A stretch of 64,000 nucleotides of DNA from an uncultured Candidatus Saccharibacteria bacterium (GCA_964520645.1 CAZFND010000003.1:881-64880); one strand, 5' to 3'. Counted from the stretch's first letter, positions 5,363 through 22,254 are shown. Program-made: numbers and translations. Notes: generated by a model from the letters alone, not told the origin.

Positions 5363-5746
5363 CTAAATTTTAAATTTTTCTCGAATTTTTACTTCCTTTT
5401 GTTCCATTTCTTCACCGTGATCGAGGCCCGTGAGGTGCACAAGTCCATGTACAAATAAAAATGCAATATAATTTTCGTATGTTCGTTCAAAAAGATGTGC
5501 TTCTTTTTCTGAATATGATAAGCAAATAAAAATTTCTCCAGAAGACTCATCAAGAGGGAAGCTTAAAATATTTGTAGGTTTATCTTTTTGTCGGGTTTTG
5601 AGATTAAGCTCATGCATTTCTTTTTCATCGAGAAATACAAGGCTGAGTTCATAATCCTCACCTAAAGCGAAGTTTTTGATATCACGAAAAGGCAAGCTGG
5701 GAAGCTTGCCTTTAGTTTTATTGAGAATTTCGAATGCGTCCTGCAT
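5363..5746 (-). CDS. ybeY: rRNA maturation endoribonuclease YbeY
   Basis: HGLVHLTGLDHGEE metal-binding H3 motif. Its ATG overlaps the rpsU stop as TAATG, suggesting translational coupling. Confidence 0.8.
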   Translation of the reverse strand: MQDAFEILNKTKGKLPSLPFRDIKNFALGEDYELSLVFLDEKEMHELNLKTRQKDKPTNILSFPLDESSGEIFICLSYSEKEAHLFERTYENYIAFLFVHGLVHLTGLDHGEEMEQKEVKIREKFKI

Positions 5747-5985
5747 TATCTTCGAACGTATGCTTCCTGAGCTTTTCCAAGCTTCACTTGAAGTTCGTGT
5801 TCTGTTCGTCTTCGAAGTGTTTTGAGGGTCTTCTTCTTTCGAACGTATCGTGATTCATCTCGTTTTGCATAGCGGAGAGAACGTACTCGCGTAAGAATTC
5901 CTGCTCCTTGAACTCGCTTGGTAAAGCGTTTTAGAACGTTTGTGGCGTTCTCATTAGTGTTTTTCTGGACCTCTACATTTATCAT
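5746..5985 (-). CDS. rpsU: 30S ribosomal protein S21
   Basis: VLKRFTKRVQGAGILTRVR…YVRKKK follows the S21 pattern (RRFKR…AGVL…R); small basic protein. Confidence 0.7.
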   Translation of the reverse strand: MINVEVQKNTNENATNVLKRFTKRVQGAGILTRVRSLRYAKRDESRYVRKKKTLKTLRRRTEHELQVKLGKAQEAYVRR

Positions 5986-6013
5986 AATAGATCAAAGGTT
6001 AACATATTAAGCT

Positions 6014-7201
6014 TTATTTGACAAGCTTCTTCAAGAAATCAGCTGCCTCGGTAATTCGTACGGTTTCTTGAGACCGATTGGTCATTTCTCGTATAAGAAC
6101 AGTGTTTTCCATACTCTCTTTTTGTCCCATAATGAGTATGTATGAGACGTTAAGATACTCAGCACTCGAAAGCTGGGTGGTAAGTTTGTCTTTTGTAAGG
6201 GAATGGTAAACCACAATTTTGGCTCTTCGTAATGTTTCAATGAATCCGAGACTCTTGAGCTTCGCCTCTCGACCCATTTGAATAAAGTAGAGCTCTGGCT
6301 TTTTAATCTTCTTTGTAGAGTTTGATGCTTTTGCGCTTTTAGAAAGGTAGAGTACCGCACTAATCCCAGGAACATCTTTTTTCAAACCGATTTTCTTCCC
6401 TAAATTTGCCCAACGGATACCATATGCAAGCAGTTGTGGATCTTGTTTCTCTTTTCCCTTTCCCCATATTTTGAAGATAGTATGAGATGCGAATCCTTCA
6501 TTATCTATTAAGCAACTATTGATAGAATAGGGAATATCACTCATTTCGAGAAGCTCTAATACTTCTTTAAAGTGAGTTCGGGATGATTCTGAAAGATAGT
6601 TCATTGGCTTTGGAGCGCGAGACTTAATTTCAGCACAGCCAGGATGATCACACGTGAGCGTAGCAAGAGCACTTTTCTTTAAAAGCTGTCGGCAATCAGC
6701 ATGAAGTTCACTCAGGTGCTTTTTAAAGTAGGTAGTAAGATCTCGAACACAACGATTCATTGAATCTTTGTCTCCAATACTATTTATTTCTACTGAGATT
6801 TCGTCATATCCTTCACTCTGTATGATTTCGTAACAGGTTTTTATGACGGTTGCATCGGCAATACTTTTTCCGGTGCCGATAATATCAAGAGAGAGTTGAA
6901 TCTTATCTTTCTTTTTTTCACTTGAAGTAAGCTTGTTTTCATTCATCATCATAAGAGGTACCTGAGAAGGCATTTTGGTGAAATAGGTACGAAGAAGAGC
7001 GATTTTTTCTTCGGGATGAATGTGATGTTGATCTATTGGATTATCAAGAAAAGCCTTGGCATGATCATGATCAGCCTTTTCTATACTTACTGGTGAAGCA
7101 GGAGTAAATCCATAATAAAGACCGATTTCAAATGCTTTGTGAGTTTCGGGATATGTCCAATACTGTTCGTTCTTATCTTTATTCTTTTGTTTTTTTGTCA
7201 T
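6014..7201 (-). CDS. histidyl-tRNA-synthetase-like protein (divergent; canonical class II motifs not recognisable)
   Basis: The middle and C-terminal parts align by eye with HisRS (VEINSIGD ~ LELNSIGS; RTHFKEVLELLEMSDIPYSIN ~ [21 protein letters not shown]; C-terminal anticodon-binding-like ILIMGQKE…VLIREM). The N-terminal third, motif 2 (FRxE…QF) and the GGRYDGL block are not conserved. Start reassigned to MTKKQ (7199-7201). Confidence 0.55.
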   Translation of the reverse strand: MTKKQKNKDKNEQYWTYPETHKAFEIGLYYGFTPASPVSIEKADHDHAKAFLDNPIDQHHIHPEEKIALLRTYFTKMPSQVPLMMMNENKLTSSEKKKDKIQLSLDIIGTGKSIADATVIKTCYEIIQSEGYDEISVEINSIGDKDSMNRCVRDLTTYFKKHLSELHADCRQLLKKSALATLTCDHPGCAEIKSRAPKPMNYLSESSRTHFKEVLELLEMSDIPYSINSCLIDNEGFASHTIFKIWGKGKEKQDPQLLAYGIRWANLGKKIGLKKDVPGISAVLYLSKSAKASNSTKKIKKPELYFIQMGREAKLKSLGFIETLRRAKIVVYHSLTKDKLTTQLSSAEYLNVSYILIMGQKESMENTVLIREMTNRSQETVRITEAADFLKKLVK

Positions 7202-7205
7202 GATC

Positions 7206-7769
7206 TTACTTCGATTCTCTGAATGTACCAGGATGAACTGAAATCTTCTGGAATGGGAACAGTCGAATGAGAGGAGTACCAATAATTAAATTTCGTGGAA
7301 GTGTACCCCAAACTCGAGAGTCTGAACTTTGACGGCGATTATCTCCCATTACAAAGTAGTCTGTATCTTTGAGGGTGACTTTAATATTGTCTTCTTTTTC
7401 ATTTACTTCACTTATGTATGGCTCATCAAGCGTAAAGCCATTTGGATATGTCTTATTCTTTATCGTGACAGTTGTACCGTTGATTTCTACTGATTCTCCA
7501 GGAAGGCCAATGATTCTTTTAATAAAATATTTACTTGGATCTTTAGGATATTTGAAAATAACGACTTGGCCACGTTCTGGTTCCCCGATTCTATAACTTA
7601 ACTGATCAACGATGAGATATTCGCCCGTTTCAAATGTGGGATCCATTGATGCACCACTGACAATGAATGGTTGAGCTACAAAAAATCTAATAGGGAGTAC
7701 AACTATGAATGCAAGAATTCCAAATTTTATAAGATCTTTAAAAAAATGTTCTTTCTTTTCTTCATTCAT
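7206..7769 (-). CDS. lepB: signal peptidase I
   Basis: SGASMDPTF (Ser box) …GDNRRQSSDSRVWG (box E); N-terminal TM. Confidence 0.85.
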   Translation of the reverse strand: MNEEKKEHFFKDLIKFGILAFIVVLPIRFFVAQPFIVSGASMDPTFETGEYLIVDQLSYRIGEPERGQVVIFKYPKDPSKYFIKRIIGLPGESVEINGTTVTIKNKTYPNGFTLDEPYISEVNEKEDNIKVTLKDTDYFVMGDNRRQSSDSRVWGTLPRNLIIGTPLIRLFPFQKISVHPGTFRESK

Positions 7770-10143: not shown

Positions 10144-10236
10144 CCCCGCCTCACCCCAACCCCTCTCCCTACCGTGAGAGGGGAATACGATCCTCTCCTG
10201 GTAAGGAGAGGATGCCCGCAGGGCAGGTGAGGCGGG
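10144..10236. repeat. nested palindromic intergenic element, copy 1 (full length)
   Basis: ccgcctcacc … cccctctc/gagagggg hairpin … cctctcc/ggagagg hairpin … ggtgaggcgg closing the outer stem. The same architecture recurs at 28610-28707 and, truncated, at 42691-42728. Confidence 0.6.
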
Positions 10237-10274
10237 ATTTTCTAAAAATTAGAAAGCTGCTATACTACACCCAT

Positions 10275-10904
10275 ATGGTTATTACATTTCACGGAAATCA
10301 GTTTTTCAAGATGACGTTTGGAGACACCGTATTAGCCTTCAATCCCATCTCAAAAGATTCAAAACTCAAGTCATCCCGCTTTGGTGCAGATGTTAGTTTA
10401 ATTAGTATTAATAATCCAGATTTTAATGGTAGTGATCAGCTTTCATTTGGAGAAAAACAGCCTTTTGTGATTTCTGGTCCCGGAGAATATGAAGTGAAAG
10501 GCGTATTTATCAAAGGATTTCCTTCTACATCTACATATGGAGGTGAGGCTCTCATTAATACGGTGTATACGCTTGCACTAGACAGCATAAATATCTGTTT
10601 CTTGGGAGCACTTGATTCAAAAGAAATCACTCCTGAAATCAAGGGAGCACTCGATGAAGTAGATATTCTATTTATTCCAATTGGAGGAAAAGGTACTCTT
10701 TCTGCTGCTGATGCATATAAATTGGCTGTTCAATTCGAACCCAAAATAATTATCCCTATAGGGTATGATGATGATAAAGATGCGCTTAAGACATTTTTGA
10801 AAGAAGGAGGAGGTGAGCAATCAAAGCCTGTTGATAAATTGACGCTTAAACGAAAAGATTTGGAAGGCAAAGAAGGTGAAATAGTTATATTAGCAGCTAG
10901 CTAA
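10275..10904 (+). CDS. MBL-fold metal-dependent hydrolase (UlaG/UPF0173-like)
   Basis: MVITFHGNQ… N-terminus and DVLFIPIGG block typical of small metallo-beta-lactamase-fold hydrolases. Start reassigned to the ATG at 10275, preceded by TATACT. Confidence 0.55.
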   Translation: MVITFHGNQFFKMTFGDTVLAFNPISKDSKLKSSRFGADVSLISINNPDFNGSDQLSFGEKQPFVISGPGEYEVKGVFIKGFPSTSTYGGEALINTVYTLALDSINICFLGALDSKEITPEIKGALDEVDILFIPIGGKGTLSAADAYKLAVQFEPKIIIPIGYDDDKDALKTFLKEGGGEQSKPVDKLTLKRKDLEGKEGEIVILAAS

Positions 10905-11209: not shown

Positions 11210-13678
11210 ATGGCTGAAAAAAACACCAAAAAATCGGCGGACATTGCTCCAGTACCACATATTAACGTTGTAGATCGAAGTATCTCGACAGAAATGCGCG
11301 AGTCTTTTATCGACTATGCCATGTCTGTTATTACAGATCGTGCGCTTCCTGACGTGCGAGACGGATTGAAACCGGTACACCGAAGAATTCTCTATGCTAT
11401 GCATGAGATGAATTTGACGGCATCTGCAAAGTTTCGAAAATCGGCTGCAGTAGTGGGAGAAGTGCTCGGTAACTATCACCCTCATGGTGATGTGGCTGTA
11501 TACGATTCTATGGTGAAGATGGCACAAGACTTTTCTATGCGCTATCCGCTTATTATGGGCCAAGGAAACTTTGGTTCTATTGATGGAGACTCAGCAGCGG
11601 CTATGCGATATACCGAAGCCAAGATGTCTCGTCCTGCAAGTGAATTGCTTCGAGATATTGAAAAGGATACGGTAGATTTTCGCCCTAATTACGATGGTAC
11701 CCGAAAGGAGCCATCAGTGTTACCTGCAGCTGTTCCCAATTTATTACTCAATGGAACTCTTGGTATTGCTGTAGGTATGGCAACAAACGTTCCTCCTCAC
11801 AATCTTGGAGAAATTGTAGATGCTACAGTTCATCTCGCAGAAAACAAAGATGCAACCAATGAAGATTTGATGGGCTTTATCAAAGGTCCAGATTTTCCTA
11901 CCGGAGGAGTTATGTATGGTGAAAAAGATATTCATCATGCATATGCAAATGGAAAGGGAGGTATTGTCGTACGAGGTGAAGCAGAAATAATCGAATCAAA
12001 GTCAGACAATTTTCAAATTATAATTACTTCTATTCCGTATCGAGTAAATAAGGCTGATCTTATTATGTCTATTGCTGATCTCGTTCGAGACAAAAAGCTC
12101 GAAGGAGTAAAAGGATTACGTGATGAATCATCAAAAGATATCCGTATTGTAATTGATTTAAAAAACGGTGTTCATCCACAAAAAGTTCTCAACTTTATAT
12201 ACAAGCACACACAGCTCGAAGAAACATTTCACTTAAACATTGTTGCGCTTGTAAATGGCGTACCACAAACCCTTCCACTCAAATCTATCCTTCAGGAATT
12301 TATTGCACACCGAATGGTGGTGGTGCGACGACGTACTGAATACGATCTTAAAAAAGCAGAAGAACGCGAGCACATTTTGATTGGTCTTAAGAAAGCACTC
12401 GATCATATCGATGAAATCATTGCGCTTATTAAACGATCAAAAGATACTCCAACTGCTCATGCCAATTTGATGAAGGAGTTTAAGTTTTCTGCGATTCAGG
12501 CAACTGCAATTTTGGAAATGAGATTGCAAAAGCTCGCCGGACTTGAACGAAAGAAGATTGAAGACGAACTCAAGGCGATTCAAGCACTTATCGAAGAGCT
12601 CAAATCTATTTTGGCTAGTCCAAAGAAGATGCTTACTATTATTAAAGATGAGCTTAAACTTATTAAAGAAAAGTACGGTGATGAACGAAAGACACGTCTT
12701 GTAAAAGGTGCAGTACAGACATTTTCTGAAGAAGATCTTGTTCCTGATGAAGAATCAGTACTTGTAATGACAGCAGGAGGTTATATTAAGCGTACTGATC
12801 CTGAAGAATATCGAAAGCAAAAGAGAGGTGGAGTAGGAGTTGTAGATCTTGATACTAAAGAAGAAGATTTTGTTACAGCACTTCTTACAACAAATACGCA
12901 TAGTGACTTGCTCTTCTTTACTGATAAAGGAAAAGCATATCAAATGAAGATGTATGAAATTCCAGAAGGACGTCGTGCTACTCGAGGAAAATCAATTATG
13001 AACTTCCTTGCACTCGAAGGCACTGAGAAGGTTACATCTATTATTGCAATGCCAAAGGCTGCAAAAGATAGTAGTTTGTCATTGCTTATGGTGACTCGCG
13101 ACGGAGTAGCTAAGAAAGTAGCTGCAGAAAGCTTCCACGATGTACGACGTTCTGGAATCATAGCTATCAAGCTTGCACCAAGTGATCAGCTTATCTCTGT
13201 ATCATTTGTAGATAAGGGAGACGATGCAATTGTTGTCACATCTGAGGGGCAATCTATTCGATTTAAAGAATCTGACGTTCGAGAAATGGGCCGTGGTGCT
13301 GCAGGAGTAACTGCAATACATTTAGGAAAAGGAGATAGTGTTATTTGTGCTGATATTGTGAAAAAAGATTTCAAAGATCCATCATTGCTTGTAGTAATGA
13401 AGAATGGTTATGGTAAAAAGACTGATTTGAAAGAGTACAAAGTTCAAAAACGAGGTGGATCAGGTATCAAGACTGCTCAAGTAACTGACAAAACAGGAAA
13501 TGTGATTGCTGCTAAGGTAGTAATAGAAGATGGCTCAGAGCTTGTTGCTATGTCTAAGAAGAGTCAGGTTATACGTGTAGATATTAATGAAGTTCCATCT
13601 CTTGGACGTCAAACTCAAGGTGTACGTATTATGAAACTTCGAGATGGTGATGCTATCGCTTCTGCGGTGTGTTTGTAA
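11210..13678 (+). CDS. gyrA: DNA gyrase subunit A
   Basis: [28 protein letters not shown], active-site [12 protein letters not shown], and C-terminal beta-pinwheel repeats. Confidence 0.95.
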
Positions 13679-13736
13679 AAAATTGTGTTGATAACTTTTG
13701 CTATTAGCATTTCTTCCAAACTGCTATACTAGAGCT

Positions 13737-14270
13737 ATGGCTTTTTCTGATCCAATAAAAAATTTAGAATCTCTCAGCTTGAGTGAAGGTGCTGTAGTTG
13801 CTGACCTTGGTGCGGGATCTGGTTTTTATACCGTTGCTGCAGCACAGCTTGTACAAGCTCATGGAAAAGTGTATGCAGTTGATGTTCAGCAAGACTTATT
13901 AAGTCGTCTTAAGAACACAGCACATGAAGCACGGCTCACTAATATTGAGTATGTGCATGGTAATGCAGAAAAAATAGGAGGAACACGTATACGCGATAAT
14001 TCAGTAGATGTTGTTTTGGCGTGCAATATATTCTTTCAAATAGAAGAAAAAGAAAATTTCTTAGCGGAGGCAAAAAGAATTCTCAAGCCGAGTGGTAGAA
14101 TATTGCTTGTAGATTGGGAAGATTCGTTTGGTGGAATGGGTCCACAACCGCAGCATGTGGTGGCACCTACAGAAGCACGAGAATATTTACAAAAAGCAGG
14201 ATTTACTAAGGTAAGTGATATTGATGCAGGAGAGCATCATTATGGCTTTATATATAGAAAACAATCATGA
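13737..14270 (+). CDS. class I SAM-dependent methyltransferase
   Basis: Motif I VADLGAGSGFY and ILKPSGRILLVDW. Start set at MAFSDP. Its stop overlaps the start of the next gene. Confidence 0.7.
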   Translation: MAFSDPIKNLESLSLSEGAVVADLGAGSGFYTVAAAQLVQAHGKVYAVDVQQDLLSRLKNTAHEARLTNIEYVHGNAEKIGGTRIRDNSVDVVLACNIFFQIEEKENFLAEAKRILKPSGRILLVDWEDSFGGMGPQPQHVVAPTEAREYLQKAGFTKVSDIDAGEHHYGFIYRKQS

Positions 14271-15556
14271 AAGGAAGCAATTTTCAAATTATATTTTTAG
14301 GAGTATGTATATTTTTAGCAATTGCAGGACTTCTTTATTTTGCAGCATTTAAAGCATCTGACCAAAAATCAGCAATTTCAATTGTAATTTGGGGTACATT
14401 ACCTAATAGTTCTGTAAATGGATATATTACGCAGCTTACAAAAGATAATGAAGATTATAGTATTGCCTATGTTCAAAAACGTGCAGACACATTTGATCAG
14501 GCTTTCCTTGAAGCATTAGCTTCTGGTACTGGTCCTGATGCTCTTTTGGTGAGTCAGGATACATTGCTTAAGTATAGGAATAAGATTGTTACATTGCCAT
14601 ATTCAAGCTTGTCTAAACAAGCATTTAAAGACACCTATATTTCAGCAGCAGAAGTATATTTAAATTCAGCAGGAACATTGGCGCTTCCATTTTCGATAGA
14701 TCCATTAGTAATGTATTGGAATCGAGATTTGTTTACTAATGCTCAAATTGCATTACCTCCTAAGACATGGGATGAATTTAATACCGTGGCACCTCAGATC
14801 ACTCAACGACAAGGGTTACTTAATATCACACAAAGTGCGGTAGGGTTGGGAGAATTTAGAAATATAACTCATGCCAAAGAAATCGTGAGTCTTCTTATGA
14901 TGCAGTCAGGAAATCCTATTGTAGTTGCAAATGATGCTGGATATTTTTCATCAGTAATAAGTAGTAATAAATCAACATCTGCTCTGACATTCTTTACTCA
15001 ATTTGCAAATCCAGACAAAGAAGCATATTCATGGAATCGTTCATTAGCTGAGTCAAAGAATTTATTTTTAGCTAATAAACTCGGTGTATATTTTGGATAT
15101 GCGAGCGAATTAGCAGAATTGAAAGCAAAAAATCCAAATCTTAATTTTAGTGTAGCAGTAGTTCCTCAATTAAAACCTACTACAAATGTCCCTCAAGTAA
15201 AAATGACCTACGGAGGCATGTATGGTCTTTCTATTGTACGAAATACAAAGAGTGTATCTGATACAGCAAAAGCTCTTATCTTTTTAACAAGCAAAGAGGG
15301 AAGTCCTATTTGGAATACAATTACTGGATTGCCTTCAGTAAGAAGAGATAGTGTTACAAGCCAAGGAAACAACGAAGCTTCTGGCGTCTTTGCAACATCT
15401 GCATTGTGGGCGCGAGCATGGCCAGATCCAAATGGTCCACTCACGAATAAAATCTTTCAAGACATGGTTGAAAATGTGACATCTGGTCGGCTTGATCCTG
15501 GTGGAGCAGTATCTCAAGCGCAAGGAGAAATTCAAAACGTGATCAATAAACAATAA
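14267..15556 (+). CDS. membrane-anchored extracellular solute-binding protein (SBP family 1-like)
   Basis: N-terminal TM, then IVIWGTLP… and GTGPDALLVSQDTLLKY pattern typical of MalE-type SBPs. No permease or ATPase is adjacent. Confidence 0.55.
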   Translation: MKGSNFQIIFLGVCIFLAIAGLLYFAAFKASDQKSAISIVIWGTLPNSSVNGYITQLTKDNEDYSIAYVQKRADTFDQAFLEALASGTGPDALLVSQDTLLKYRNKIVTLPYSSLSKQAFKDTYISAAEVYLNSAGTLALPFSIDPLVMYWNRDLFTNAQIALPPKTWDEFNTVAPQITQRQGLLNITQSAVGLGEFRNITHAKEIVSLLMMQSGNPIVVANDAGYFSSVISSNKSTSALTFFTQFANPDKEAYSWNRSLAESKNLFLANKLGVYFGYASELAELKAKNPNLNFSVAVVPQLKPTTNVPQVKMTYGGMYGLSIVRNTKSVSDTAKALIFLTSKEGSPIWNTITGLPSVRRDSVTSQGNNEASGVFATSALWARAWPDPNGPLTNKIFQDMVENVTSGRLDPGGAVSQAQGEIQNVINKQ

Positions 15557-15557
15557 T

Positions 15558-15998
15558 ATGAAGAAAATTATTCTCGTCTTATTCCTAACCATATTTTCAG
15601 TACAGTTTTTGTTTCCTACTTTTGCACGTGCTAATGGTGGTGGCTTCTCATTAGGACTAGTACCTTGTGGTCAGGGAGATAGAATAGTGAATAATGTTGT
15701 GCAATCATCACCACCATGTGATTTGCAGCAATTTGTAATCATGATTAGAAATATCATTGATTTTCTTGGTTTTCTTTCCATACCTATAGCCACCATTGCC
15801 ATCACTGTAGCTGGATTTGTTCTTATATTTGCTCGAGGAAATGTAGAGCGAATTAAATATGCTAAGAATATTCTGATAAAAGTACTCATTGGATTTTTGA
15901 TTGTGCTGTGTGCATGGGGATTGGTATATCTCATTACGAGTACCTTACTTGATCCATGTGCACAATATCTTGGTACTCCAAGTGCTGCATGTAAATAG
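15558..15998 (+). CDS. VirB2/TrbC-like (T4SS-pilin-like) small secreted two-TM protein, paralog 1
   Basis: Signal peptide (…FARA), four Cys, two C-terminal hydrophobic helices separated by a short basic loop (ARGNVERIKYAKN). Only 2 nt gap from the upstream SBP gene. Confidence 0.5.
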   Translation: MKKIILVLFLTIFSVQFLFPTFARANGGGFSLGLVPCGQGDRIVNNVVQSSPPCDLQQFVIMIRNIIDFLGFLSIPIATIAITVAGFVLIFARGNVERIKYAKNILIKVLIGFLIVLCAWGLVYLITSTLLDPCAQYLGTPSAACK

Positions 15999-16014
15999 TC
16001 ATCAATAAAAATAT

Positions 16015-16488
16015 ATGAAAAAAAATAGAATAATTATTATCACATTACTTTCACTCTGTATGTATACTGGATTTATTATAAGTAATGTTCAATTTGCTTA
16101 CGCGCAACTTGGTGGTACACAAGCAGGGCAAACAGGAGGAACTCAATCTGGTCAGACTGGAGGGACACAATCTGGACAAATAGGTGGTACACAAGCAGGA
16201 CAGCCTGGAGGAATATATACCGTTCCTAACCCTCTAAAAGGGCCTACAACCCTCCTTGGAGTGCTCGCGGTAGTATTGGATGTCGTAGTGCAAGTTGGAG
16301 CTGTTATAGCGGTTCTCTTTATTATTTGGTCAGGTTTCCTCTTTATCACTGCTCAGGGAAATCCAGAAAAAATAAGAATAGCAAAAAGTACTCTCTATAC
16401 CACACTCGTAGGAACAGCTTTGGTACTCGGATCAAGTGTAATTGCAAGTATTTTAGTAAATACAGTTAATAAAGTTACTAATAAATAA
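16015..16488 (+). CDS. VirB2/TrbC-like pilin-like protein, paralog 2 (with GGTQxGQ tandem repeats)
   Basis: Signal peptide, then (GGTQ[AS]GQ[TI]) x4 encoded by 21-nt tandem repeats at about 16110-16200, followed by the same two-helix core (…IIWSGFLFITAQGNPEKIRIAK…). Confidence 0.5.
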   Translation: MKKNRIIIITLLSLCMYTGFIISNVQFAYAQLGGTQAGQTGGTQSGQTGGTQSGQIGGTQAGQPGGIYTVPNPLKGPTTLLGVLAVVLDVVVQVGAVIAVLFIIWSGFLFITAQGNPEKIRIAKSTLYTTLVGTALVLGSSVIASILVNTVNKVTNK

Positions 16489-16492
16489 CTAC

Positions 16493-16870
16493 ATGAAAAA
16501 ATTAGGAATTATTATAAGTATAGCTGCTTTCCCGGGTATTATATATGCTGCTGATGTTACGGATTTATTGAGCTTGTTTAATTTTATGACGCAGCTCATC
16601 AATGCGTTTGTTCCACTATTATTTGGCCTTGCGATGCTTGCATTTTTATGGGGAATGGTGAAGTTTATTTACTATGCTGATGATCCAAAGCGTCGTGCCG
16701 ATGGGAAATATGTCATGATCTGGGGGGTCGTTGCTCTTGCCGTGATGATGTCTATGTGGGGATTGGCGCTTACGTTAAAAAATATGTTTTTCTCTAACTC
16801 TCCTGCACCAATAAATGTTTCTAACAATGGACATACTCAGTATGATGAGCCTATCGATAATAATTTATAG
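16493..16870 (+). CDS. VirB2/TrbC-like pilin-like protein, paralog 3
   Basis: Signal peptide; core LFGLAMLAFLWGMVKFIYYADDPKRRADGKYVMIWGVVALAVMMSMWGL matches the array consensus. Confidence 0.5.
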   Translation: MKKLGIIISIAAFPGIIYAADVTDLLSLFNFMTQLINAFVPLLFGLAMLAFLWGMVKFIYYADDPKRRADGKYVMIWGVVALAVMMSMWGLALTLKNMFFSNSPAPINVSNNGHTQYDEPIDNNL

Positions 16871-16991
16871 GCATAAGATATCCACATTCTTGTTGCAATT
16901 TTCTCATCAGTAGCTCATAATTTAGAAAGCTTTTTAGTTTTTGTATAAAAACAAAAAGGTCGTTAGTATTATTAGTTTATTTTTATTATAA

Positions 16992-17381
16992 ATGAAAAAA
17001 TTTTTAGTAGGTGCTTCATCAATAGCAGCACTTGCACTTCCAAGTCTTGCTTTTGCAAACTCAAACTCAATCAGTTTGAATCTTTCAGGTTTTCAAGGAT
17101 CAGTAGCAAGTCTTACTGATGCTGTAAACTCATTGGTTCCATTTGGTCTTGCTGTTGCTGTTATCGTATTTATTTACGGTATCATTCGATACATCATCGG
17201 AAAGGATGCTGGTGCACAGTCAGAAGCTCGAAGTTATATGATTTGGGGTGTTGTAGGTATTGCTGTTATCTTGGCAGTACTTGGACTTGCAAAGCTTCTT
17301 ACAAATCTTCTTGGAGTTCAGACAGGTTCAGGAGGTGTAGTTGGTAATGATCTTCCACAGGTTCCAAATAGTGCTAACTAA
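16992..17381 (+). CDS. VirB2/TrbC-like pilin-like protein, paralog 4
   Basis: Signal peptide (…LAFA); core FGLAVAVIVFIYGIIRYIIGKDAGAQSEARSYMIWGVVGIAVILAVLGL. Confidence 0.5.
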   Translation: MKKFLVGASSIAALALPSLAFANSNSISLNLSGFQGSVASLTDAVNSLVPFGLAVAVIVFIYGIIRYIIGKDAGAQSEARSYMIWGVVGIAVILAVLGLAKLLTNLLGVQTGSGGVVGNDLPQVPNSAN

Positions 17382-17403
17382 GTATTTATAGTATTTACGC
17401 TTC

Positions 17404-17745
17404 ATGCAATTATTTGGCACTCTCTATACTCCTCTTAAAACATATGTCATTTTTCCAGCAATAGGAATACTGTTTGGAGTAGCGATGATTTATTTTTTGT
17501 GGGGGATGGTAGTCTTCATTTGGAGTTCTAGTAACGAAGAAGGACGACAAAAAGGGAAGGAGCACATGATGTATGGAGTTTTGGGACTAGCTATTATGTT
17601 GTCAGTGTATGGTATTATGAATTTTATTCTTGCTACCATACGAAGTATTGGACCGGGTCTGCATTACGATGCCAATGGTATTCGTCAGGATAGGCCGGTT
17701 GAAAATCCTTCCACATTAATGGATCTTGAAGGTTCCAATAAGTAA
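17404..17745 (+). CDS. VirB2/TrbC-like pilin-like protein, paralog 5 (no cleavable signal peptide)
   Basis: Core LFGVAMIYFLWGMVVFIWSSSNEEGRQKGKEHMMYGVLGLAIMLSVYGI starts almost at the N-terminus; distinct C-terminal tail. Confidence 0.45.
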   Translation: MQLFGTLYTPLKTYVIFPAIGILFGVAMIYFLWGMVVFIWSSSNEEGRQKGKEHMMYGVLGLAIMLSVYGIMNFILATIRSIGPGLHYDANGIRQDRPVENPSTLMDLEGSNK

Positions 17746-17757
17746 CTACAAATAAAC

Positions 17758-17797
17758 AAAAACTACGTAATACTTTCTGGTATAACGTAGTTTTTGT
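17758..17797 (+). terminator. rho-independent terminator after the pilin-like array
   Basis: aaactacgt…acgtagttttt hairpin followed by a T-run. Confidence 0.55.
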
Positions 17798-17814
17798 TTG
17801 GGGAAATTAAGTAT

Positions 17815-17844
17815 GAAAAAAGCGGGACAACTATGTCGTCCCGC
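17815..17844 (-). terminator. rho-independent terminator of the high-GC cassette gene 1
   Basis: On the minus strand, gcgggacgacatagttgtcccgc followed by TTTTTT, about 30 nt after the stop at 17871. Confidence 0.6.
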
Positions 17845-17870
17845 TCTGGTTTAGCACGAAGTGCTGATGT

Positions 17871-19037
17871 TCAAATTCCTTTCGATCTTTCCGTGATGTC
17901 GTTGCGTTCCCAACGAATTCCTACACCCTTTTCAGGAGGCTCAACTGCCTGGAATCTCAATCCGTATATGACTCCGAGCGTTGTGCCCATATTCTCTGGC
18001 TCGCTTCCTGGCGGAAGTGGCCACAGAATTTGTTCAAATCGAGGCTTCCGAGTGAGGTTCTGGTTGTGGGTAGGACCATGGTCCACCTCGATAAGGATCC
18101 TACCTTTCGTAGGCAAATCCAAGAAGATGTTGTACAAATTTTCTTTCCCCCTGAAGTTGCCCTTGATTGGAGCTGACCATTGTCCCAATGGTACATCATG
18201 GTACTCATATCCTCCGTCTGCTGGATAGCAGAAGGGATGGAGTTTGTCGTACACCTGGGCCGCGGTCTGAGGTGTAGCTGGCGCCGGAGGATCAACTCCG
18301 ATGCTGAGCTTAGGCGCCTGCTTGGACGGTTGAGGTGTCTTTGCCTCAGCGATTCGCGCTTCGGCTTCTTTCTCTCTTGCCCTTGCTTCGGCAATTCGCA
18401 CAGCATCGGGTGATGCTGGCTGCTGCTTGGCTTTGACCAGAGCATGTTCCTTGGCGGCCAGCTTCTCCTTTTCCACCAGCTCTGCAATACGTGGAGCATA
18501 GTAGGTGTTGAAGTTGCCTAGGATAGTCACGATGTTGATCAGGATTGCTCCGGCACTCGTAGTTTTCCATAGTAGCAGCATCGCTTTTTGGACCCCGCTC
18601 ATTTTTGTCTTTTCATCTTTGCCTGGAGTCTGATCCTCCTTTTGGGCGATGGCAAACGGAATCGAAAAAACGATAATTCCGATTACCAGGAACCACCATT
18701 CATCGGTATATCGGTATACCGAAATAAAGTGGGTTGGAGTCAGAGACCTGATCGCAAACTCCACGAATATGAAGATGAAGCAGGCAACGAGCAGAATGAT
18801 GAGCTTGAGGCGGTGTTCAGTTGCTAGCCTACCCAAGCCTTTCTTTCCTGTGCTGTCTGAAGTTGAAGCAGTGTCATTTGCCTTCTGCTTGGTTTTGTCC
18901 CATTCAGGTTCTTGATGTCGTATGGTTTCTTGGATTTTTCCTATCACCCAAGAAATTAGTTTAACAAAAGCAACAATGCCACCGACGATCAGGACACATC
19001 CACATACGATGAGCGTAATCAAAACATTATCTGTCAT
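17871..19037 (-). CDS. polytopic membrane protein with Ala/Glu/Pro-rich coiled-coil linker and conserved C-terminal domain (high-GC cassette gene 1)
   Basis: Several TM helices, AEARAREKEAEARIAEAK coiled coil, C-terminal globular region. High third-position GC. Own promoter (TTGACT-17-TATTAT) and AAGGAGttcgcATG ribosome-binding site. Confidence 0.55.
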   Translation of the reverse strand: MTDNVLITLIVCGCVLIVGGIVAFVKLISWVIGKIQETIRHQEPEWDKTKQKANDTASTSDSTGKKGLGRLATEHRLKLIILLVACFIFIFVEFAIRSLTPTHFISVYRYTDEWWFLVIGIIVFSIPFAIAQKEDQTPGKDEKTKMSGVQKAMLLLWKTTSAGAILINIVTILGNFNTYYAPRIAELVEKEKLAAKEHALVKAKQQPASPDAVRIAEARAREKEAEARIAEAKTPQPSKQAPKLSIGVDPPAPATPQTAAQVYDKLHPFCYPADGGYEYHDVPLGQWSAPIKGNFRGKENLYNIFLDLPTKGRILIEVDHGPTHNQNLTRKPRFEQILWPLPPGSEPENMGTTLGVIYGLRFQAVEPPEKGVGIRWERNDITERSKGI

Positions 19038-19221
19038 GCGAACTCCTTAAGGTAAGGTGTGTTTAAATCGAAATTAACAAAGAACTTTATTGATAATAGC
19101 ATATAAAATATAAAAAGTCAAATATTATAATGTATAGAAAAAAGGCCGCAGTTACGGCCCTTTTAAGTGACAGGGAAGCGTTTCTTCCAAGCACTTTATT
19201 TTTTAATTTTTTCCTTTTGAC

Positions 19222-20394
19222 TTAACTAACGGGTGTTTGAATAACTGGAGATGCACCAGACCCATCAACTAGAGTCTGCCCCTTAAATCCAGCTACTCCC
19301 TTTGCTCGTTCTTGAGCAACAAGTACCTGAGGGGCATGTGCACCTAGTGCATTCACCTTTGCTGCTAGAACGTTAGCTTCTGCCTTACCTACTTGTGTGA
19401 TAGCACTTGCTTTACCTCGCGCTTCTTCACTTTCGGCATCTGCTTTAAGTGTAGCTGCTGTTCTTGCTTCCAGCGCTTGTTCAAGAGCAAAATTTGCGTC
19501 ATATCCAGCAGAGTTGTAGGCAGCTACACCCATGCCAGTTGTCTGAATGGTGCCACTGTTTCCTAAGCTGGCATTGAGTACTGCTTGTTCGAATTCTCCA
19601 GGAGTTGCTTTCCCATCTTTTCCAATCTTAGAAGTTGCTTTTTCCAACTCTCGGATTGCATCAAGGTTCATTTTTCGGAAAAAGTCATTAATGGCTCCTG
19701 CGATCGCATCATGCACATGGAAATAATAATTCCCATTCAAAAGAACGTAAGGTGTAAGAAAGTTGTGGGTAATGAGTGTTGCTGTTCCCCAGTTACGAAT
19801 CTTAGCCTGTCCTTTTGTTTCAACCCCATCTACGGTTGTGATGAATCCAGGCACTTCAATACCCTCTACATCAACCGAAATGACTTGCTGTAAAGGAAGG
19901 TCGGTTACCCATGTGGTTCGCGTGACTATTCCACGGGTATTGTCTATTTTGTAATGGTCTGGATTTTTTTCAGCTTTTTCCTTATCTCCTGGTTTCAACG
20001 GACGACGGTAACTGACTGGTACGCTTACCACTTTGTTTGGGGGGAAACCATAAAAATATGCTCCCAATGTTCGTTCTGACCAGGTAGGGGGGTCTGGTTG
20101 ATGAAATACCGCAGGTCCAGTGTCTGTTGCAGGTTGAGGAAAAAGGACGGCTCCTGTTAATTGGTCTATTCCATAACCTGGTGGTAGGCCATGCAGTATT
20201 TTTACTACCTTATTGCCCTTCGAGATGATCTGCGCATATCCCGATCTACGGAAAGTAAAAATTATTTTTCTATTAGCCATGTCAGTCACTATTGATCGAG
20301 CCGCGAGAAGTAAAAAGGGTGTGGCAATTGTAATTCCACCAATGGCCAGAAAAATAAACAAAGCAAACACCACAATCGCAATAATCCATAACAT
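19222..20394 (-). CDS. SPFH/band-7 (flotillin-like) membrane protein (high-GC cassette gene 2)
   Basis: N-terminal TM, a central SPFH-like core and an Ala/Glu-rich C-terminal region (EQALEARTAATLKADAESEEARGKA…). Preceded by AAGGAGttcagcATG and a TTGACT promoter. Confidence 0.45.
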   Translation of the reverse strand: MLWIIAIVVFALFIFLAIGGITIATPFLLLAARSIVTDMANRKIIFTFRRSGYAQIISKGNKVVKILHGLPPGYGIDQLTGAVLFPQPATDTGPAVFHQPDPPTWSERTLGAYFYGFPPNKVVSVPVSYRRPLKPGDKEKAEKNPDHYKIDNTRGIVTRTTWVTDLPLQQVISVDVEGIEVPGFITTVDGVETKGQAKIRNWGTATLITHNFLTPYVLLNGNYYFHVHDAIAGAINDFFRKMNLDAIRELEKATSKIGKDGKATPGEFEQAVLNASLGNSGTIQTTGMGVAAYNSAGYDANFALEQALEARTAATLKADAESEEARGKASAITQVGKAEANVLAAKVNALGAHAPQVLVAQERAKGVAGFKGQTLVDGSGASPVIQTPVS

Positions 20395-20518
20395 GCTGAA
20401 CTCCTTCCGTTACAAACGGTTTTGGGGGGTTGAATAGTTAAGTTCAATGTCAGAGAACAACTGTAATCTATTATGTAATATATAATAAAATACTAAAAAG
20501 TCAAGTAAAACGATGTTG

Positions 20519-20600
20519 TGCCGAGGAGAGGACTTGAACCTCCATGGGTTACCCCGCTTGCTCCTAAGGCAAGTGCGTCTGCCAATTTCGCCACCTCGGC
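20519..20600 (-). tRNA. tRNA-Leu (anticodon UAG)
   Basis: gccgaggtggcgaaattggcagacgc… with 3-bp D-stem, anticodon loop cuUAGga, long variable arm, T-loop ttcaagt. No encoded CCA. Confidence 0.8.
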
Positions 20601-20642
20601 ATTATTTGATTACGTAGCAATCAAAGATTCTGTTTATTATAG

Positions 20643-21986
20643 CTATTTTTTGTGTGTTAGCAATATAATATCTTTTTCTTCAAATGCTGTAATCCAACCC
20701 TCATTCTTTAAATCAGAAATAAATTGCTTATTATAAGTAGAAAATAGCACGCAATCTATAGAATGTTTTTTAAATTCTGCAGCACGATAATCTTTATCTT
20801 TTAGTATGTTGTTATAATTTTTAAAATAATCCTCTCCATTAAGCTTCCAGCTTGGCATACGACCATCTATATATACTTTGTGTGTTGGAAGTTTCCAGAT
20901 TAAATAGCCCCCATAATTGTAATAATTAAAAATAGTAGAGCAGGTGTTATTGGCTTTAATAAAATCAATTTCTTTTTCGGGGTATACGACATGATATCCT
21001 GTGGTGTTATAGATACCTCCTGCTGCAAGTCCTAATGCTAGACCAAAACTAATGTATATCATTTCCCATTTTTTTAGTTTTGTTTGTAGTGACGTTCGTA
21101 GATCTGCTAGCGCATATTCAAAATGCTTAAGCATTTCGGCACTAAAAAACAGGTAGTATCTAATAGATGAAAGTGACATAAGCAAAAATATCATTGGTAG
21201 AGAAATGATATTTTTCCATGTGAATTTCTTTGTAGCTAACAAAATTCCAAGAAGGGGAATAATTGTTACATAATAAAGTTGAGGGATTGCAAATCGTTTC
21301 CATTCAGAAACATAGACATGAAGATTGCTATCAAAAACTGTTCTAAATATTTCTATATATACTTTAAAACCATACGGATTGATACAGGTAGCAAGTACAG
21401 AAAGTCCAATAACATACCAGGGGATAGTATGCTCCTTAATTATTTTATAAAACAATAGTACTCCCAATCCTAAAATAAAACTGCCATGCATATTACTCCA
21501 GAGAAGTATGAGGAGAGGAATGAACCATACTATATTTTTTCGCGAGCTTTCAAGCAGCCGTTGTAAAAGCGCAAAAAATACTAGTGACCATGCTGATGGT
21601 CGAACAAAACTAAAGGAAAGAATAGACACACTCGTAGCGACAAGTACGACTTCGTCATACAAGCGTGAGGCAAGAAAAATTCCAAGCGTCCAGATGGCTG
21701 CAAACACAATAGCTAACAGATAAAAACCTCCAATATTGTATAGAAGTGCCGTAATCACATCACTGAGCCATTCATGATTGATCCATTCAAAATGAGATGC
21801 TGTGTACGTATACACGTCATAGTGGGGAACACCATGGCTTAAAATGTAATTTCCAGCTTGCAAGTGCCACCCAAAATCAGGATCAAAAAGAATAGATGTG
21901 TTAACCAAAAAAACAACAAAAACAATCGCAACACTAGAAGTAAATTTCCAATTAATGGGGGATAAATACTTCTTCAAGAAAAACAT
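20643..21986 (-). CDS. polytopic membrane protein, putative GT-C-type glycosyltransferase
   Basis: About 12 TM helices, an N-terminal loop motif DPDFGWHLQAG…, and a C-terminal soluble domain. Architecture resembles PMT/ArnT/YfhO-like GT-C enzymes. Confidence 0.4.
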   Translation of the reverse strand: MFFLKKYLSPINWKFTSSVAIVFVVFLVNTSILFDPDFGWHLQAGNYILSHGVPHYDVYTYTASHFEWINHEWLSDVITALLYNIGGFYLLAIVFAAIWTLGIFLASRLYDEVVLVATSVSILSFSFVRPSAWSLVFFALLQRLLESSRKNIVWFIPLLILLWSNMHGSFILGLGVLLFYKIIKEHTIPWYVIGLSVLATCINPYGFKVYIEIFRTVFDSNLHVYVSEWKRFAIPQLYYVTIIPLLGILLATKKFTWKNIISLPMIFLLMSLSSIRYYLFFSAEMLKHFEYALADLRTSLQTKLKKWEMIYISFGLALGLAAGGIYNTTGYHVVYPEKEIDFIKANNTCSTIFNYYNYGGYLIWKLPTHKVYIDGRMPSWKLNGEDYFKNYNNILKDKDYRAAEFKKHSIDCVLFSTYNKQFISDLKNEGWITAFEEKDIILLTHKK

Positions 21987-21992
21987 AAAATG

Positions 21993-22065
21993 TCCACCCA
22001 GCAGGATTCGAACCTGCGACCTACCGCTTAAGAGGCGGATGCTCTACCAACTGAGCTATAGGTGG
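21993..22065 (-). tRNA. tRNA-Lys (anticodon CUU)
   Basis: Cloverleaf folded by hand: acceptor ccaccta/tgggtgg, D-arm gctc…gagc, anticodon loop cuCUUaa, T-loop ttcgaat. Confidence 0.75.
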
Positions 22066-22117
22066 ATATAGGTTTTTATACCATATATTTCTTCAAAAAT
22101 CTAATGAGAAATGAATG

Positions 22118-22199
22118 TGCCCGGGGCGGGAATCGAACCCGCATCCCTTTCGAGACACGATTTTAAGTCGTGCGCGTATACCAGTTCCGCCACCCGGGC
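22118..22199 (-). tRNA. tRNA-Leu (anticodon UAA)
   Basis: gcccgggtggcggaactggtatacgc…, anticodon loop cuUAAaa, long variable arm, T-loop ttcgatt. Confidence 0.75.
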
Positions 22200-22254
22200 A
22201 TTGTAAAATGAACACACAATCAGATTATCATACAGATATGTATATAATCTAGTG

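Follow-up and report, generated by a model that had tools for sequence, protein, structure and literature searches.

Two adjacent genes on the minus strand of this DNA, situated directly at the 3' end of a tRNA-Leu(UAG) gene, look foreign: they are richer in GC than their surroundings and are led by canonical Shine-Dalgarno (SD) sites in a genome that hardly uses them. The question that this locus raises is whether the pair was acquired from a higher-GC donor at a tRNA hotspot, as an earlier note on this DNA had proposed, or whether it is an old part of the genome. Here, we analyse it within the window, i.e. the whole stretch of 64,000 nucleotides, and in related lineages (denoted by L numbers). 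Probably the pair is a native, vertically inherited envelope module of a clade of CPR/Patescibacteria whose anomaly in GC and SD use is kept by a locus-specific force, and no recently integrated island. The features of the locus are the following.

15558-17745, plus strand: five VirB2-like T4SS_pilin (PF18895) paralogs, convergent on the pair (Pfam E-values 1e-7 to 1e-9)
17754-17799, plus strand: AT-rich 20-bp hairpin closing the convergent pilin array (inverted repeat 95% complementary; -23.3 kcal/mol)
17815-17847, minus strand: intrinsic terminator of gene A (GC-rich hairpin of 13 bp with TTTTTT behind it; -20.6 kcal/mol)
17871-19037, minus strand: gene A, 388 aa, polytopic membrane protein with three hydrophobic segments by hydropathy, possibly a fourth
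19043-19048, minus strand: SD site AAGGAG of gene A, 5 nt before ATG (anti-SD duplex -8.7 kcal/mol)
19093-19121, minus strand: promoter-like site of gene A from a scan, TTGACT-17-TATTAT with TG before the second hexamer
19138-19164, minus strand: intrinsic terminator of gene B (GGCCG/CGGCC hairpin with a T run behind it; -16.3 kcal/mol)
19222-20394, minus strand: gene B, 390 aa; an N-terminal membrane anchor precedes a divergent SPFH domain (stomatin/HflKC-like) and predicted C-terminal helices rich in Ala/Glu
20401-20406, minus strand: SD site AAGGAG of gene B, 6 nt before ATG (anti-SD duplex -8.3 kcal/mol)
20477-20504, minus strand: promoter-like site of gene B, TTGACT-16-TATATT (scan score 10/12)
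20494-20504, minus strand: exact TTGACTTTTTA of gene B (exact-copy scan)
20518-20600, minus strand: tRNA-Leu(UAG) (ARAGORN; 56 bits with Rfam tRNA), conserved anchor on the upstream side

The whole window has about 37% GC and its 1-kb segment 18001-19000 reaches 49.5%. Hand counts in the earlier note of about 63% GC at 18241-18300 versus 33% at 16501-16560 were accurate (63.3% and 33.3%). GC-rich third codon positions, which had been claimed for the entire cassette, are a property of gene A only. Relative to the 61 other ORFs of the window (mean GC3 0.260, sd 0.044) this gene has a GC content of 0.489 (+4.8 sd) and a GC3 of 0.509 (+5.6 sd), and both C-ending and G-ending codons are raised, with G/(A+G) of 0.55 versus 0.29 and a four-fold G+C of 0.43 versus 0.19. 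Measured against the same ORFs, gene B shows a moderate GC content (0.442, +2.9 sd) and an ordinary GC3 (0.312, +1.2 sd); its excess is located in codon positions 1 and 2, the protein being rich in Ala (12%) and Gly (9%). Promoters and intergenic spacers within the cassette are AT-rich, as is the host genome. In the window, CUG codons are enriched in the pair, with CUR representing 36% versus 9% of Leu codons (p = 1e-6). A bldA-like dependence of the pair on the adjacent tRNA-Leu(UAG) via rare CUA/CUG codons was rejected since CUA is not consistently enriched in relatives; the CUG excess is therefore merely the GC3 shift.

With a near-consensus promoter, a canonical SD site and an intrinsic terminator each, the two genes would form separate transcription units. 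The promoter box recognized earlier in both of them is indeed shared as the exact TTGACTTTTTA, with spacers of 16 (gene B) and 17 (gene A). It is not private to the cassette, for a third exact copy at 35541-35551 apparently drives an unrelated, small structured RNA candidate, which means that the boxes are of the genome's own type. A TTGAC(T) box is found upstream of B homologs in relatives too. Strong SD sites, defined by an anti-SD duplex of -6 kcal/mol or lower, precede only 4 of the 63 ORFs of the window, and so the contrast drawn earlier between the pair and most genes of the window is real. The 16S rRNA gene is absent from the window. The claim of one terminator per gene was likewise correct (GC hairpin plus T run in both cases). 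A terminator and a new promoter separate B from A in the window as in L003, L010, L011, L044, L046 and L047, which speaks against co-transcription; stop and start codons of the two genes overlap only in the distant L004 copy.

The cassette adjoins the tRNA gene as described, with 14 nt between the tRNA 3' end and the -35 box of gene B. That no integrase and no att duplication are present could be corroborated: integrase families had no match in the eight neighbouring genes scanned, and a direct repeat of the tRNA 3' end (attL/attR) was not found in 17300-21000 with a seed of 8. The scanned neighbours are pilins, an SBP, a methyltransferase, GyrA, RbfA and a membrane protein with nothing but a sub-threshold glycosyl-hydrolase match. 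The gene beyond RbfA, named from its sequence alone, is presumably IF-2. Neither gene A nor gene B gave a match in viral, phage and JGI metagenome searches or to any defence system.

Gene B was described by the earlier note as SPFH/flotillin-like, and the first half of this assignment is upheld by family profiles. The protein alone matches neither Pfam Band_7 (PF01145) nor any PDB entry, nothing significant appeared in PHROGs, NCBIfam and PADLOC, and the flotillin subfamily (PF15975) drops out with E = 0.1 and 13.1 bits versus a cut-off of 27. In a word-index homology search each of the two proteins found nothing but itself, and the profile of the B family (A1) added one further member. By exhaustive phmmer 35 relatives were collected (representatives of clusters formed at 50% identity, out of 1.8 billion), of which six match Band_7; the positional ortholog in L017 does so with E = 1e-4. 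Profiles of the 7 and of the 16 closest relatives reach neither an SPFH structure nor Pfam Band_7. The A1 profile matches the PH stomatin structure 3bk6 with E = 4.6e-9, and a profile built from the family's distant half (A4) finds 3bk6 (4e-11), PH1511 (9e-6) and QmcA (2e-4), with prohibitin, HflC and stomatin following at E-values of about 1e-3 to 1e-2. This distant half is connected with the profile of gene B and its 15 closest relatives (A3) by hhalign at a probability of 100% (E = 1.7e-69, 328 columns). Judged from these comparisons, gene B is a very divergent member of the SPFH/stomatin superfamily, visible only via family profiles and by a transitive link.

Its residues 1-36 are hydrophobic (Kyte-Doolittle 2.98), as expected of a membrane anchor that may be either a single span or a re-entrant hairpin, and AF2 predicts a helix over residues 2-41 with pLDDT 81-92. 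With an overall pLDDT of 43 the single-sequence AlphaFold model is too poor to serve as evidence for the fold. Between anchor and SPFH core the alignment reveals an insertion of ~100 residues. Ala/Glu-rich helices are predicted at residues 289-368 in this low-confidence model, and the corresponding C-terminal region of the family can be aligned with E-values of about 2e-3 to 5e-3 to the coiled-coil wall regions in HflC, HflK and prohibitin, the HflC/HflK coiled coil being placed on the region of residues 289-368 by the family profile at E about 2.5e-3.

Gene A has no significant match in Pfam, PHROG, NCBIfam, PADLOC or PDB, and among 5.8 billion proteins it matches only itself. A charged helical stretch at ~residues 180-232 is followed by a Pro/Ala linker and a C-terminal domain of ~125 aa. 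The single-sequence AF2 model (pLDDT 50) is helical up to ~residue 227 and beyond it disordered or of low confidence, with residues 234-388 below pLDDT 50. Every relative carries at this place a gene of the same architecture. In agreement with the earlier note, the partner lacks the signature of NfeD (PF01957), which was undetected at E up to 0.1 in gene A and in six proteins occupying its slot in relatives. Homology among the slot proteins is detectable by BLASTP and hhalign for three pairs only (window/L003, L010/L014, L044/L004_A2), and across sublineages none was detected, with hhalign probabilities below 10%. This means that one fast-evolving partner family and a slot refilled by unrelated genes are inseparable here.

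The age of the locus can be read from its surroundings in relatives. At least nine other CPR lineages have the same layout, in which tRNA-Leu(UAG), SPFH gene and partner are followed by a convergent array of VirB2-like pilins and then by SBP, methyltransferase and GyrA. Every sampled in-clade context of a B relative (L003, L009, L010, L011, L012/13, L014/15, L016 and L047, with L017 and L044 as layout variants) shows the order tRNA-Leu(UAG), SPFH gene, partner and convergent pilin array. Full synteny was found in L003 (GCA_034680565.1), whose GyrA is 90% identical and where GyrA, methyltransferase, SBP, five pilins, a 342-aa partner, a 446-aa B homolog, tRNA-Leu(UAG) and the membrane protein are collinear, and also in L010, L012/13, L014/15 and L047; L009, L011 and L016 offer shorter spans and L017 contains additional inserted genes. 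In L003, L010, L011, L014, L016 and L047 the B homolog is immediately preceded by this tRNA gene, and contig L009 starts with the 3' part of the tRNA gene. After the pair the pilin array follows also in L003, L010, L012, L014, L047 and L017, and even after the more distant L004 copy. Among the related lineages sampled no empty site was found, the closest relative being the one with 90% GyrA identity. More distant relatives, with a GyrA identity of 52-58% (L018, L019, L022 and L026), possess the GyrA-to-pilin block near tRNA-Leu(UAG), but no SPFH gene was found less than 10 kb away, and so a single gain of the pair in the common ancestor of the clade is possible.

Phylogenetic reconstruction of B gives two groups, ((window,(L003,L009)),L011) and ((L010,L014),(L012,L016)), followed by L004 and with L017 as outermost branch, and this tree is congruent with those of GyrA, SBP and methyltransferase. 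The closest relative of the L014 pilin is the L010 pilin (64%), the same pairing as for the B proteins. In blastn, L003 aligns collinearly with the window at 11250-17658 and 20517-22201 and shows no DNA similarity across 17659-20516. At protein level their identity decreases from GyrA (90%) via methyltransferase (68%), membrane protein (55%) and SBP (54%) to pilins (38-63%), B (38%) and A (about 20%). An identical ranking is seen between L010 and L014 with pilin 64%, B 42% and A 33%. Between lineages B differs at 56-74% of its residues.

The compositional anomaly is shared as well. In most low-GC relatives both genes are GC-rich and SD-led and their neighbours are not. GC3 of B and of the A-slot gene amounts to 0.55/0.69 versus 0.23-0.32 in the flanks of L003, 0.58/0.66 versus 0.33-0.47 in L010, 0.48/0.60 versus 0.30-0.40 in L047, 0.63/0.70 versus 0.40 in L016 and 0.36/0.42 versus 0.23-0.39 in L012, compared to 0.31/0.51 versus 0.26 in the window. 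SD sites precede 11 of 12 B genes of relatives and nearly all A-slot genes and are rare in the flanks. It follows that the anomaly belongs to the module itself, which is native and fast-evolving, and is conserved with it. According to the earlier note, the same genes at the same position with similarly high GC in relatives and without a discontinuity would indicate an old, native feature; genes, position and GC content (similar or even higher) agree with this, but the discontinuity persists in the relatives too. Thus, the locus is old and native without being compositionally ordinary.

How could such a composition have arisen? A recent islet from a GC-richer donor, integrated beside the tRNA-Leu(UAG) 3' end, would account for the outlying GC3 of gene A, for SD sites that look foreign in an SD-less genome, for the contact with the tRNA gene and for the missing DNA similarity to L003. 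This reading is highly improbable in view of the recurrence of these genes at this position in nine or more other lineages, collinearity with L003 on both sides, a B phylogeny congruent with the flanking genes, a GC3 of gene B already at genome level, promoter boxes of the genome's own type (the third copy at the small RNA candidate) and the absence of integrase and att repeat. A single ancient import from a GC-rich donor into the clade's ancestor, with subsequent amelioration that was passive and is as yet incomplete, fits with the missing pair in the equivalent region of more distant relatives, with raised G- and C-ending codons and GC-rich amino acids as expected of a formerly GC-rich gene, and with a GC3 gradient among lineages in which B of the window is nearly equilibrated. 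We nevertheless regard it as rather unlikely. The B copies of window and L003 differ by 0.24 in GC3 though their GyrA proteins are 90% identical, and this shift together with the B divergence of 56-74% means that there was ample time for synonymous sites to equilibrate, but L003, L009, L010, L016 and L047 still have GC3 values of 0.48-0.70 versus 0.23-0.47 in their flanks. Passive decay also leaves the retention of SD sites on both genes in almost every lineage unexplained.

Repeated refilling of the slot between tRNA and pilins by homologous recombination with alleles of GC-rich clade members would have suitable donors, since GC-rich sister lineages of the same layout exist (L014-like with 63% GC, L017-like with 54% GC). 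It would also agree with the cassette being the sole DNA-unalignable segment of a collinear block and with partner proteins that are unalignable between sublineages. Against it stand the B tree, which follows the flank trees, the AT-rich and host-like promoters and spacers inside the cassette, and the sister-pair identities of B (42%) and A (33%), which are below that of the adjacent pilin (64%) whereas a recent import would be more similar; we consider this scenario improbable. Finally, the high GC could be nothing unusual and be due solely to the amino acids encoded or to codon selection for translation where expression is high. Gene B, with its excess in positions 1 and 2 and its normal GC3, would agree with this, and strong promoter, SD site and terminator let high expression be predicted. 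However, in gene A and in most copies of relatives GC3 is strongly elevated, G-ending codons included. A GC3 of 0.17-0.36 is found in the ORFs at 51.3-57.0 kb, which resemble a ribosomal-protein gene cluster, so there is no sign of high expression raising GC3 here, and this explanation has very little probability.

We thus return to the native module. Since raised GC and SD sites were kept throughout lineages in which the remaining genes are AT-rich and without SD sites, and the pair was inherited vertically, the anomaly points to a locus-specific force and is not the scar of a recent transfer. Candidates for the cause of the high GC are GC-biased recombination and selection on mRNA; the most likely forces would be GC-biased repair at an often-recombining, fast-evolving surface locus or such mRNA selection. 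In the lineage of the window this force has presumably weakened, as GC3 of gene B has almost decayed to genome level. By analogy with stomatin, QmcA, HflK/C and flotillin, the product of gene B would most likely oligomerize into a ring or cage at the membrane, and gene A would be the client or partner organised by this scaffold, with an NfeD- or FtsH-like role without homology and an apparently rapidly evolving C-terminal domain. The conserved position between tRNA-Leu(UAG) and the convergent pilin array suggests a cell-surface or pilus-related role of the pair.

A stronger version is a tentative possibility at best: two surface-related genes next to the pilin array might be held actively GC-rich and SD-dependent in a lineage that has given up SD-led initiation and drifted to low GC. 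Their mRNAs could be read by a distinct ribosome state, as for rpsU in Flavobacteriia, or the locus could be a recombination hotspot at which GC-biased conversion shapes the composition and at the same time makes the proteins of a complex facing host or phage evolve very fast. If true, this would be a vertically inherited compositional island that standard island-finding logic misreads as horizontal gene transfer.

Among known systems the SPFH-NfeD pairs (PH1511/PH1510, Escherichia coli QmcA/YbbJ, Bacillus subtilis FloT/YuaF) are similar in having a membrane-anchored SPFH gene beside a multi-pass partner that ends in a small soluble domain, and PH stomatin, PH1511 and QmcA are matched by the B family profile. 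NfeD is usually encoded upstream of the SPFH gene in one operon. In contrast, gene A is found downstream of B with promoter and terminator of its own and without the NfeD signature, and gene B, with its insertion before the SPFH core, is too divergent for Pfam Band_7. With the HflK/HflC-FtsH complex and other SPFH cages of QmcA, stomatin, prohibitin and flotillin (cryo-EM entries 7vhp, 8z5g, 9wkz and 8rrh; PMC11260169) the pair may have in common the predicted C-terminal helices, which in the family align to the coiled-coil wall, and the suggested ring or cage around a membrane client; it differs in that there is neither a protease nor another recognisable client, and a single SPFH gene is found instead of a paralog pair.

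The pilins on which the pair converges belong to the VirB2-like arrays of Patescibacteria, which comprise 2-11 genes of low mutual identity and are commonest in Saccharimonadia and Microgenomatia (PMC12102498). As cited in that paper, they were reported to be essential in one cultured Saccharibacterium. A search of its text for the terms SPFH, stomatin and Band_7 found no mention, and the linkage of the array to tRNA-Leu(UAG), SBP, methyltransferase and GyrA is documented here only. The relatives of B are an unannotated, highly divergent SPFH subfamily with a non-NfeD partner, tightly linked to VirB2-like pilin arrays. This makes the pair a concrete candidate component of the poorly understood cell surface of these episymbionts.

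With tRNA-linked islands and phage "morons" the cassette shares the contact with a tRNA 3' end, the deviant composition and the autonomous promoter-gene-terminator units, but it lacks integrase, att repeat and phage genes and was inherited vertically at the same site across the clade. It is a clean counter-example to composition-based island calling, being an outlier in GC, codon use and SD sites beside a tRNA gene. Lineages blind to SD sites are known to keep strong, conserved ones on a few genes, e.g. rpsU in Flavobacteriia (PMC9976891, PMC7797042, PMC13000453). The present case resembles this exception in that a lineage hardly using SD sites keeps strong ones on very few specific genes; unlike there, the genes concerned are predicted envelope proteins and not bS21. 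Their conservation on just these genes of an SD-less genome offers a handle on translation initiation in CPR bacteria. As minor observations, the 447-aa membrane protein compared with the genome contigs matched two loci only, both non-syntenic and 34-35% identical, and no differences were seen (100% identity) between contigs that encode the same B protein and come from different samples.

The gene pair between tRNA-Leu(UAG) and the convergent array of VirB2-like pilin genes differs in composition from the rest of the window. Overall GC content is about 37%, the 1-kb bin 18001-19000 has 49.5%, and at 200-nt resolution a peak of 0.58 is found around 18.2-18.5 kb; two 60-nt hand counts of the earlier note (63.3% and 33.3% GC) proved exact. 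The features concerned are:

19222-20394, minus strand: gene B, long ORF of 390 aa, SPFH-like
17871-19037, minus strand: gene A, long ORF of 388 aa, membrane partner
20518-20600, minus strand: tRNA-Leu(UAG), on the same strand as gene B and directly upstream of it

Compared with 61 other ORFs (GC 0.370 ± 0.025, GC3 0.260 ± 0.044), gene A deviates both in GC (0.489, +4.8 sd) and in GC3 (0.509, +5.6 sd), whereas gene B deviates in GC (0.442, +2.9 sd) and far less in GC3 (0.312, +1.2 sd). The GC-rich third codon positions previously ascribed to both genes are thus a property of gene A only, and the GC excess of gene B resides in codon positions 1 and 2, a consequence of the high Ala (12%) and Gly (9%) content of its product. 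In gene A C-ending as well as G-ending codons are elevated, with 4-fold sites showing a G+C of 0.43 (background 0.19) and a G/(A+G) of 0.55 (background 0.29). A second and stronger compositional island comprises a single 133-aa ORF (40990-41391, plus strand; GC 0.60, GC3 0.69, +9.8 sd) located between an FtsQ-like gene and dus and equipped with its own promoter-like site and terminator. Its product, which has no match in Pfam or PADLOC, carries a signal peptide and repeats rich in Pro, Val and Cys (PPPVVVY); like the pair, the ORF may represent a class of stand-alone envelope genes with high GC.

Most expression signals described in the earlier note were found as stated. An exact copy of the promoter box TTGACTTTTTA lies ahead of each gene, within a site that scores 10/12 against the sigma-70 consensus, and both genes end in a GC hairpin followed by a T run (-16.3 kcal/mol for B and -20.6 kcal/mol for A). 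Since a third exact copy of TTGACTTTTTA occurs elsewhere (35541-35551, minus strand), this box represents the genome's own strong -35 element and is not exceptional. The third copy lies 5' of some 145 nt of GC-rich non-coding sequence downstream of topA, closed by a strong hairpin plus T run (box and stretch together 35372-35551, minus strand). Its transcript (MFE -59.8 kcal/mol, z = -5.4 versus shuffles; no family in an Rfam search) is a candidate for a small structured RNA. The Shine-Dalgarno (SD) motif AAGGAG is situated 5-6 nt ahead of ATG in both genes, with anti-SD pairing energies of -8.3 (B) and -8.7 (A) kcal/mol. This is exceptional, as just 4 of 63 ORFs in the window reach -6 kcal/mol or lower, among them none of those at 51-57 kb, which look ribosomal-protein-like but are unconfirmed by tools. 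The genome is essentially SD-less, and SD sequences are likewise rare in the flanking genes of related loci, including the GC-rich L014. The one other strong SD in the window, AAGGAGAGG (locus 10190-10214), lies within the perfect 8-bp hairpin CCTCTCCT-GGTA-AGGAGAGG directly 5' of the start codon (ATG) of a gene of the Lactamase_B_3 family (10212-10904), and the hairpin may sequester the SD or may be the terminator of the upstream unit.

The pair is surrounded by five PF18895 VirB2-like pilins, a solute-binding protein (SBP), a methyltransferase, GyrA, a 447-aa membrane protein, further tRNAs and RbfA, after which an ORF reads as IF-2 (named from sequence, unscanned). Relatives of B led to a series of related loci, the closest of which (L003, GCA_034680565.1; GyrA 90% identical) contains on a 241-kb contig GyrA, methyltransferase, SBP, five pilins, a 342-aa membrane protein, a 446-aa B homolog, tRNA-Leu(UAG), a membrane protein and tRNA-Lys. 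With blastn the two are collinear over 11250-17658 and 20517-22201 and the sole gap is the cassette. The same gene order occurs in L010, L012/13, L014/15 and L047 and, over the span of their short contigs, in L009, L011 and L016. The more distant L044 and L046 have kept the paired units, each with own promoter, SD and terminator, and in L044 a convergent pilin-like gene follows the pair. In L017 (GyrA 73%) two genes adjoin the pilins, one of 197 aa and a Band_7-like one of 346 aa (E = 1e-4), and in L004-L008, which are more distant still, an SPFH gene adjoins the pilin array. Contigs that encode the same B protein in different samples are identical. In L003 the 447-aa polytopic membrane protein encoded at 20643-21986, upstream of tRNA-Leu(UAG), has two tandem counterparts (4971-7690), paralogs of 456 and 449 aa that share 59% identity. 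In L009, L011, L013, L016, L044 and L046 (contigs of 1.7-2.9 kb) the assembly breaks right at the pair edges, with break points that fall within tRNA-Leu, immediately behind it or in the interval from B to its partner, which could reflect strain heterogeneity or just the short contigs typical of these collections.

The anomaly in composition recurs together with the gene order.

GC3 of the B gene, of the gene at the position of A (A slot) and of flanking genes in the window and in related loci
L003: B 0.55; A slot 0.69; flanks 0.23-0.32
L010: B 0.58; A slot 0.66; flanks 0.33-0.47
L047: B 0.48; A slot 0.60; flanks 0.30-0.40
L016: B 0.63; A slot 0.70; flanks 0.40
L012: B 0.36; A slot 0.42; flanks 0.23-0.39
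Window: B 0.31; A slot 0.51; flanks 0.26

In the GC-rich relatives L014 (63% GC) and L017 (54% GC) the composition of the pair equals that of the genome. An SD precedes 11 of 12 B genes and nearly all partner genes in the relatives (the L003 partner being counted with its second ATG taken as start), and conservation extends to the TTGAC(T) promoter boxes and to the terminators that separate the two genes. The pair is a vertically inherited compositional and translational island. Its vertical inheritance is deduced from the recurring layout and from neighbour-joining trees, in which B agrees with GyrA, SBP and methyltransferase (window with L003, then L010 and L012, with L017 outside). Moreover, the L014 pilin is nearest to the L010 pilin, and the same holds for their B and A-slot proteins. 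Within the block the pair is the fastest-evolving part: between the window and L003 identity amounts to 90% for GyrA, 68% for the methyltransferase, 55% for the 447-aa membrane protein, 54% for SBP, 38-63% for the pilins and 38% for B.

These data bear directly on how the unusual composition arose. The earlier note had proposed a recent import from a GC-richer donor at a tRNA hotspot; the observation behind it is partly confirmed, but in its recent form this interpretation is rejected because relatives hold the same genes at the same place with similar high GC. In agreement with the earlier note, the tRNA 3' end proved not to be repeated in 17300-21000, and none of the neighbouring genes scanned was an integrase. 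More distant genomes without the pair exist and leave room for a single ancient gain, which may have occurred. Some of these carry other GC-rich genes in the vicinity of the pilin array and of tRNA-Leu(UAG), namely L018 (16095-18232; GC 0.44-0.45 versus 0.37), L019 (4302-6776 and 7676-8116) and L026 (16859-18317), all with GC above their own genome and, except for a Gly-zipper domain, with no Pfam assignment. Repeated replacement of the pair from GC-rich relatives is disfavoured by the congruence of the B tree with those of the flanks and by sister pairs, in which B and A are less alike than the adjacent pilin. Translational codon selection is disfavoured as well, since G-ending codons are elevated and the putative ribosomal-protein cluster (51.3-57.0 kb) is not GC3-rich.

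That the inherited pair is a passive relic is hard to sustain because GC3 of window and L003 is already 0.24 apart at a GyrA identity of 90%, and deeper lineages still show 0.48-0.70. From this we infer a maintaining force that acts in most lineages and is relaxed in that of the window. One candidate would be GC-biased gene conversion, a process documented across bacteria (PMC4450053), at a frequently recombining locus; it would be consistent as well with the faster evolution of the proteins and their elevated content of GC-rich amino acids. Another would be mRNA selection tied to SD-dependent initiation, and in SD-blind Bacteroidia conserved SD sites persist on specific genes (PMC9976891, PMC7797042). 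The sister lineages L014/L015 and L010 (Logan runs SRR29305599, SRR29305604) share gene order and have an adjacent pilin of 64% identity, and L014/L015 contigs have a GC of 0.63 and GC3 of about 0.84 versus 0.45 and 0.33-0.47 in L010, so genomic GC shifts fast within this clade.

Neither A nor B has a significant match in Pfam, PHROGs, NCBIfam, PADLOC or PDB, and a word-indexed search of 5.8 billion proteins returned self matches only. Exhaustive phmmer search of 1.84 billion representatives revealed 35 relatives of B (best 39% identical; 16 at E <= 1e-10), and 6 of 35 family members reach Pfam Band_7. The family profile matches Pyrococcus horikoshii stomatin (E = 4.6e-9) and, at E of about 1e-3 to 1e-2, HflC, HflK, prohibitin and QmcA. 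Profiles built from only the 7 or 16 closest relatives fail to match SPFH structures. The link is transitive via the distant half of the family: the near set joins 20 more distant members (hhalign probability 100%, E = 1.7e-69, 328 columns), and the distant set matches stomatin (4e-11), PH1511 (9e-6) and QmcA (2e-4). On these profile comparisons B is a highly divergent SPFH-superfamily protein, and its earlier naming as SPFH-like stands through the family although not by direct Pfam or PDB search. Its N-terminal anchor (residues 1-36) is hydrophobic, about 100 inserted residues separate the anchor from the SPFH core, and the C-terminal helices are rich in Ala and Glu. Single-sequence AlphaFold models (pLDDT 43 for B, 50 for A) are of too low quality for use.

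Gene A encodes three clear hydrophobic segments, possibly a fourth. Next come a charged helical stretch (about residues 180-232) and a linker of Pro and Ala, and some 125 residues make up the C-terminal region. Database-wide protein searches detect no relatives. In a single comparison it is about 20% identical to the L003 partner (E = 6e-4), and partner-slot proteins have a common architecture with homology undetectable across sublineages. Judged by its sequence A falls outside the NfeD family, in accordance with the earlier note: it has no PF01957 match and, in contrast with the usual NfeD arrangement, lies downstream of the SPFH gene and is predicted to be transcribed separately.

By analogy with the solved SPFH assemblies matched by the family profiles (HflK/C, QmcA, stomatin, prohibitin), to which the flotillin cage can be added (PMC11260169), B probably assembles into a ring or cage attached to the membrane. 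Being always encoded next to B, A is most likely its client or partner and, despite lacking the NfeD domain, is proposed as functional analogue of NfeD/FtsH. VirB2-like pilin arrays were described in Patescibacteria (PMC12102498), and a term search of that paper gave no mention of SPFH proteins. What emerges is a new, divergent SPFH subfamily that has a non-NfeD partner, conserved synteny with pilin arrays and a conserved anomaly in GC and SD. The invariant convergence of pair and pilin array points to a function at the cell surface or in connection with pili, and the extreme divergence of the C-terminal part of A suggests exposure to hosts or phages.
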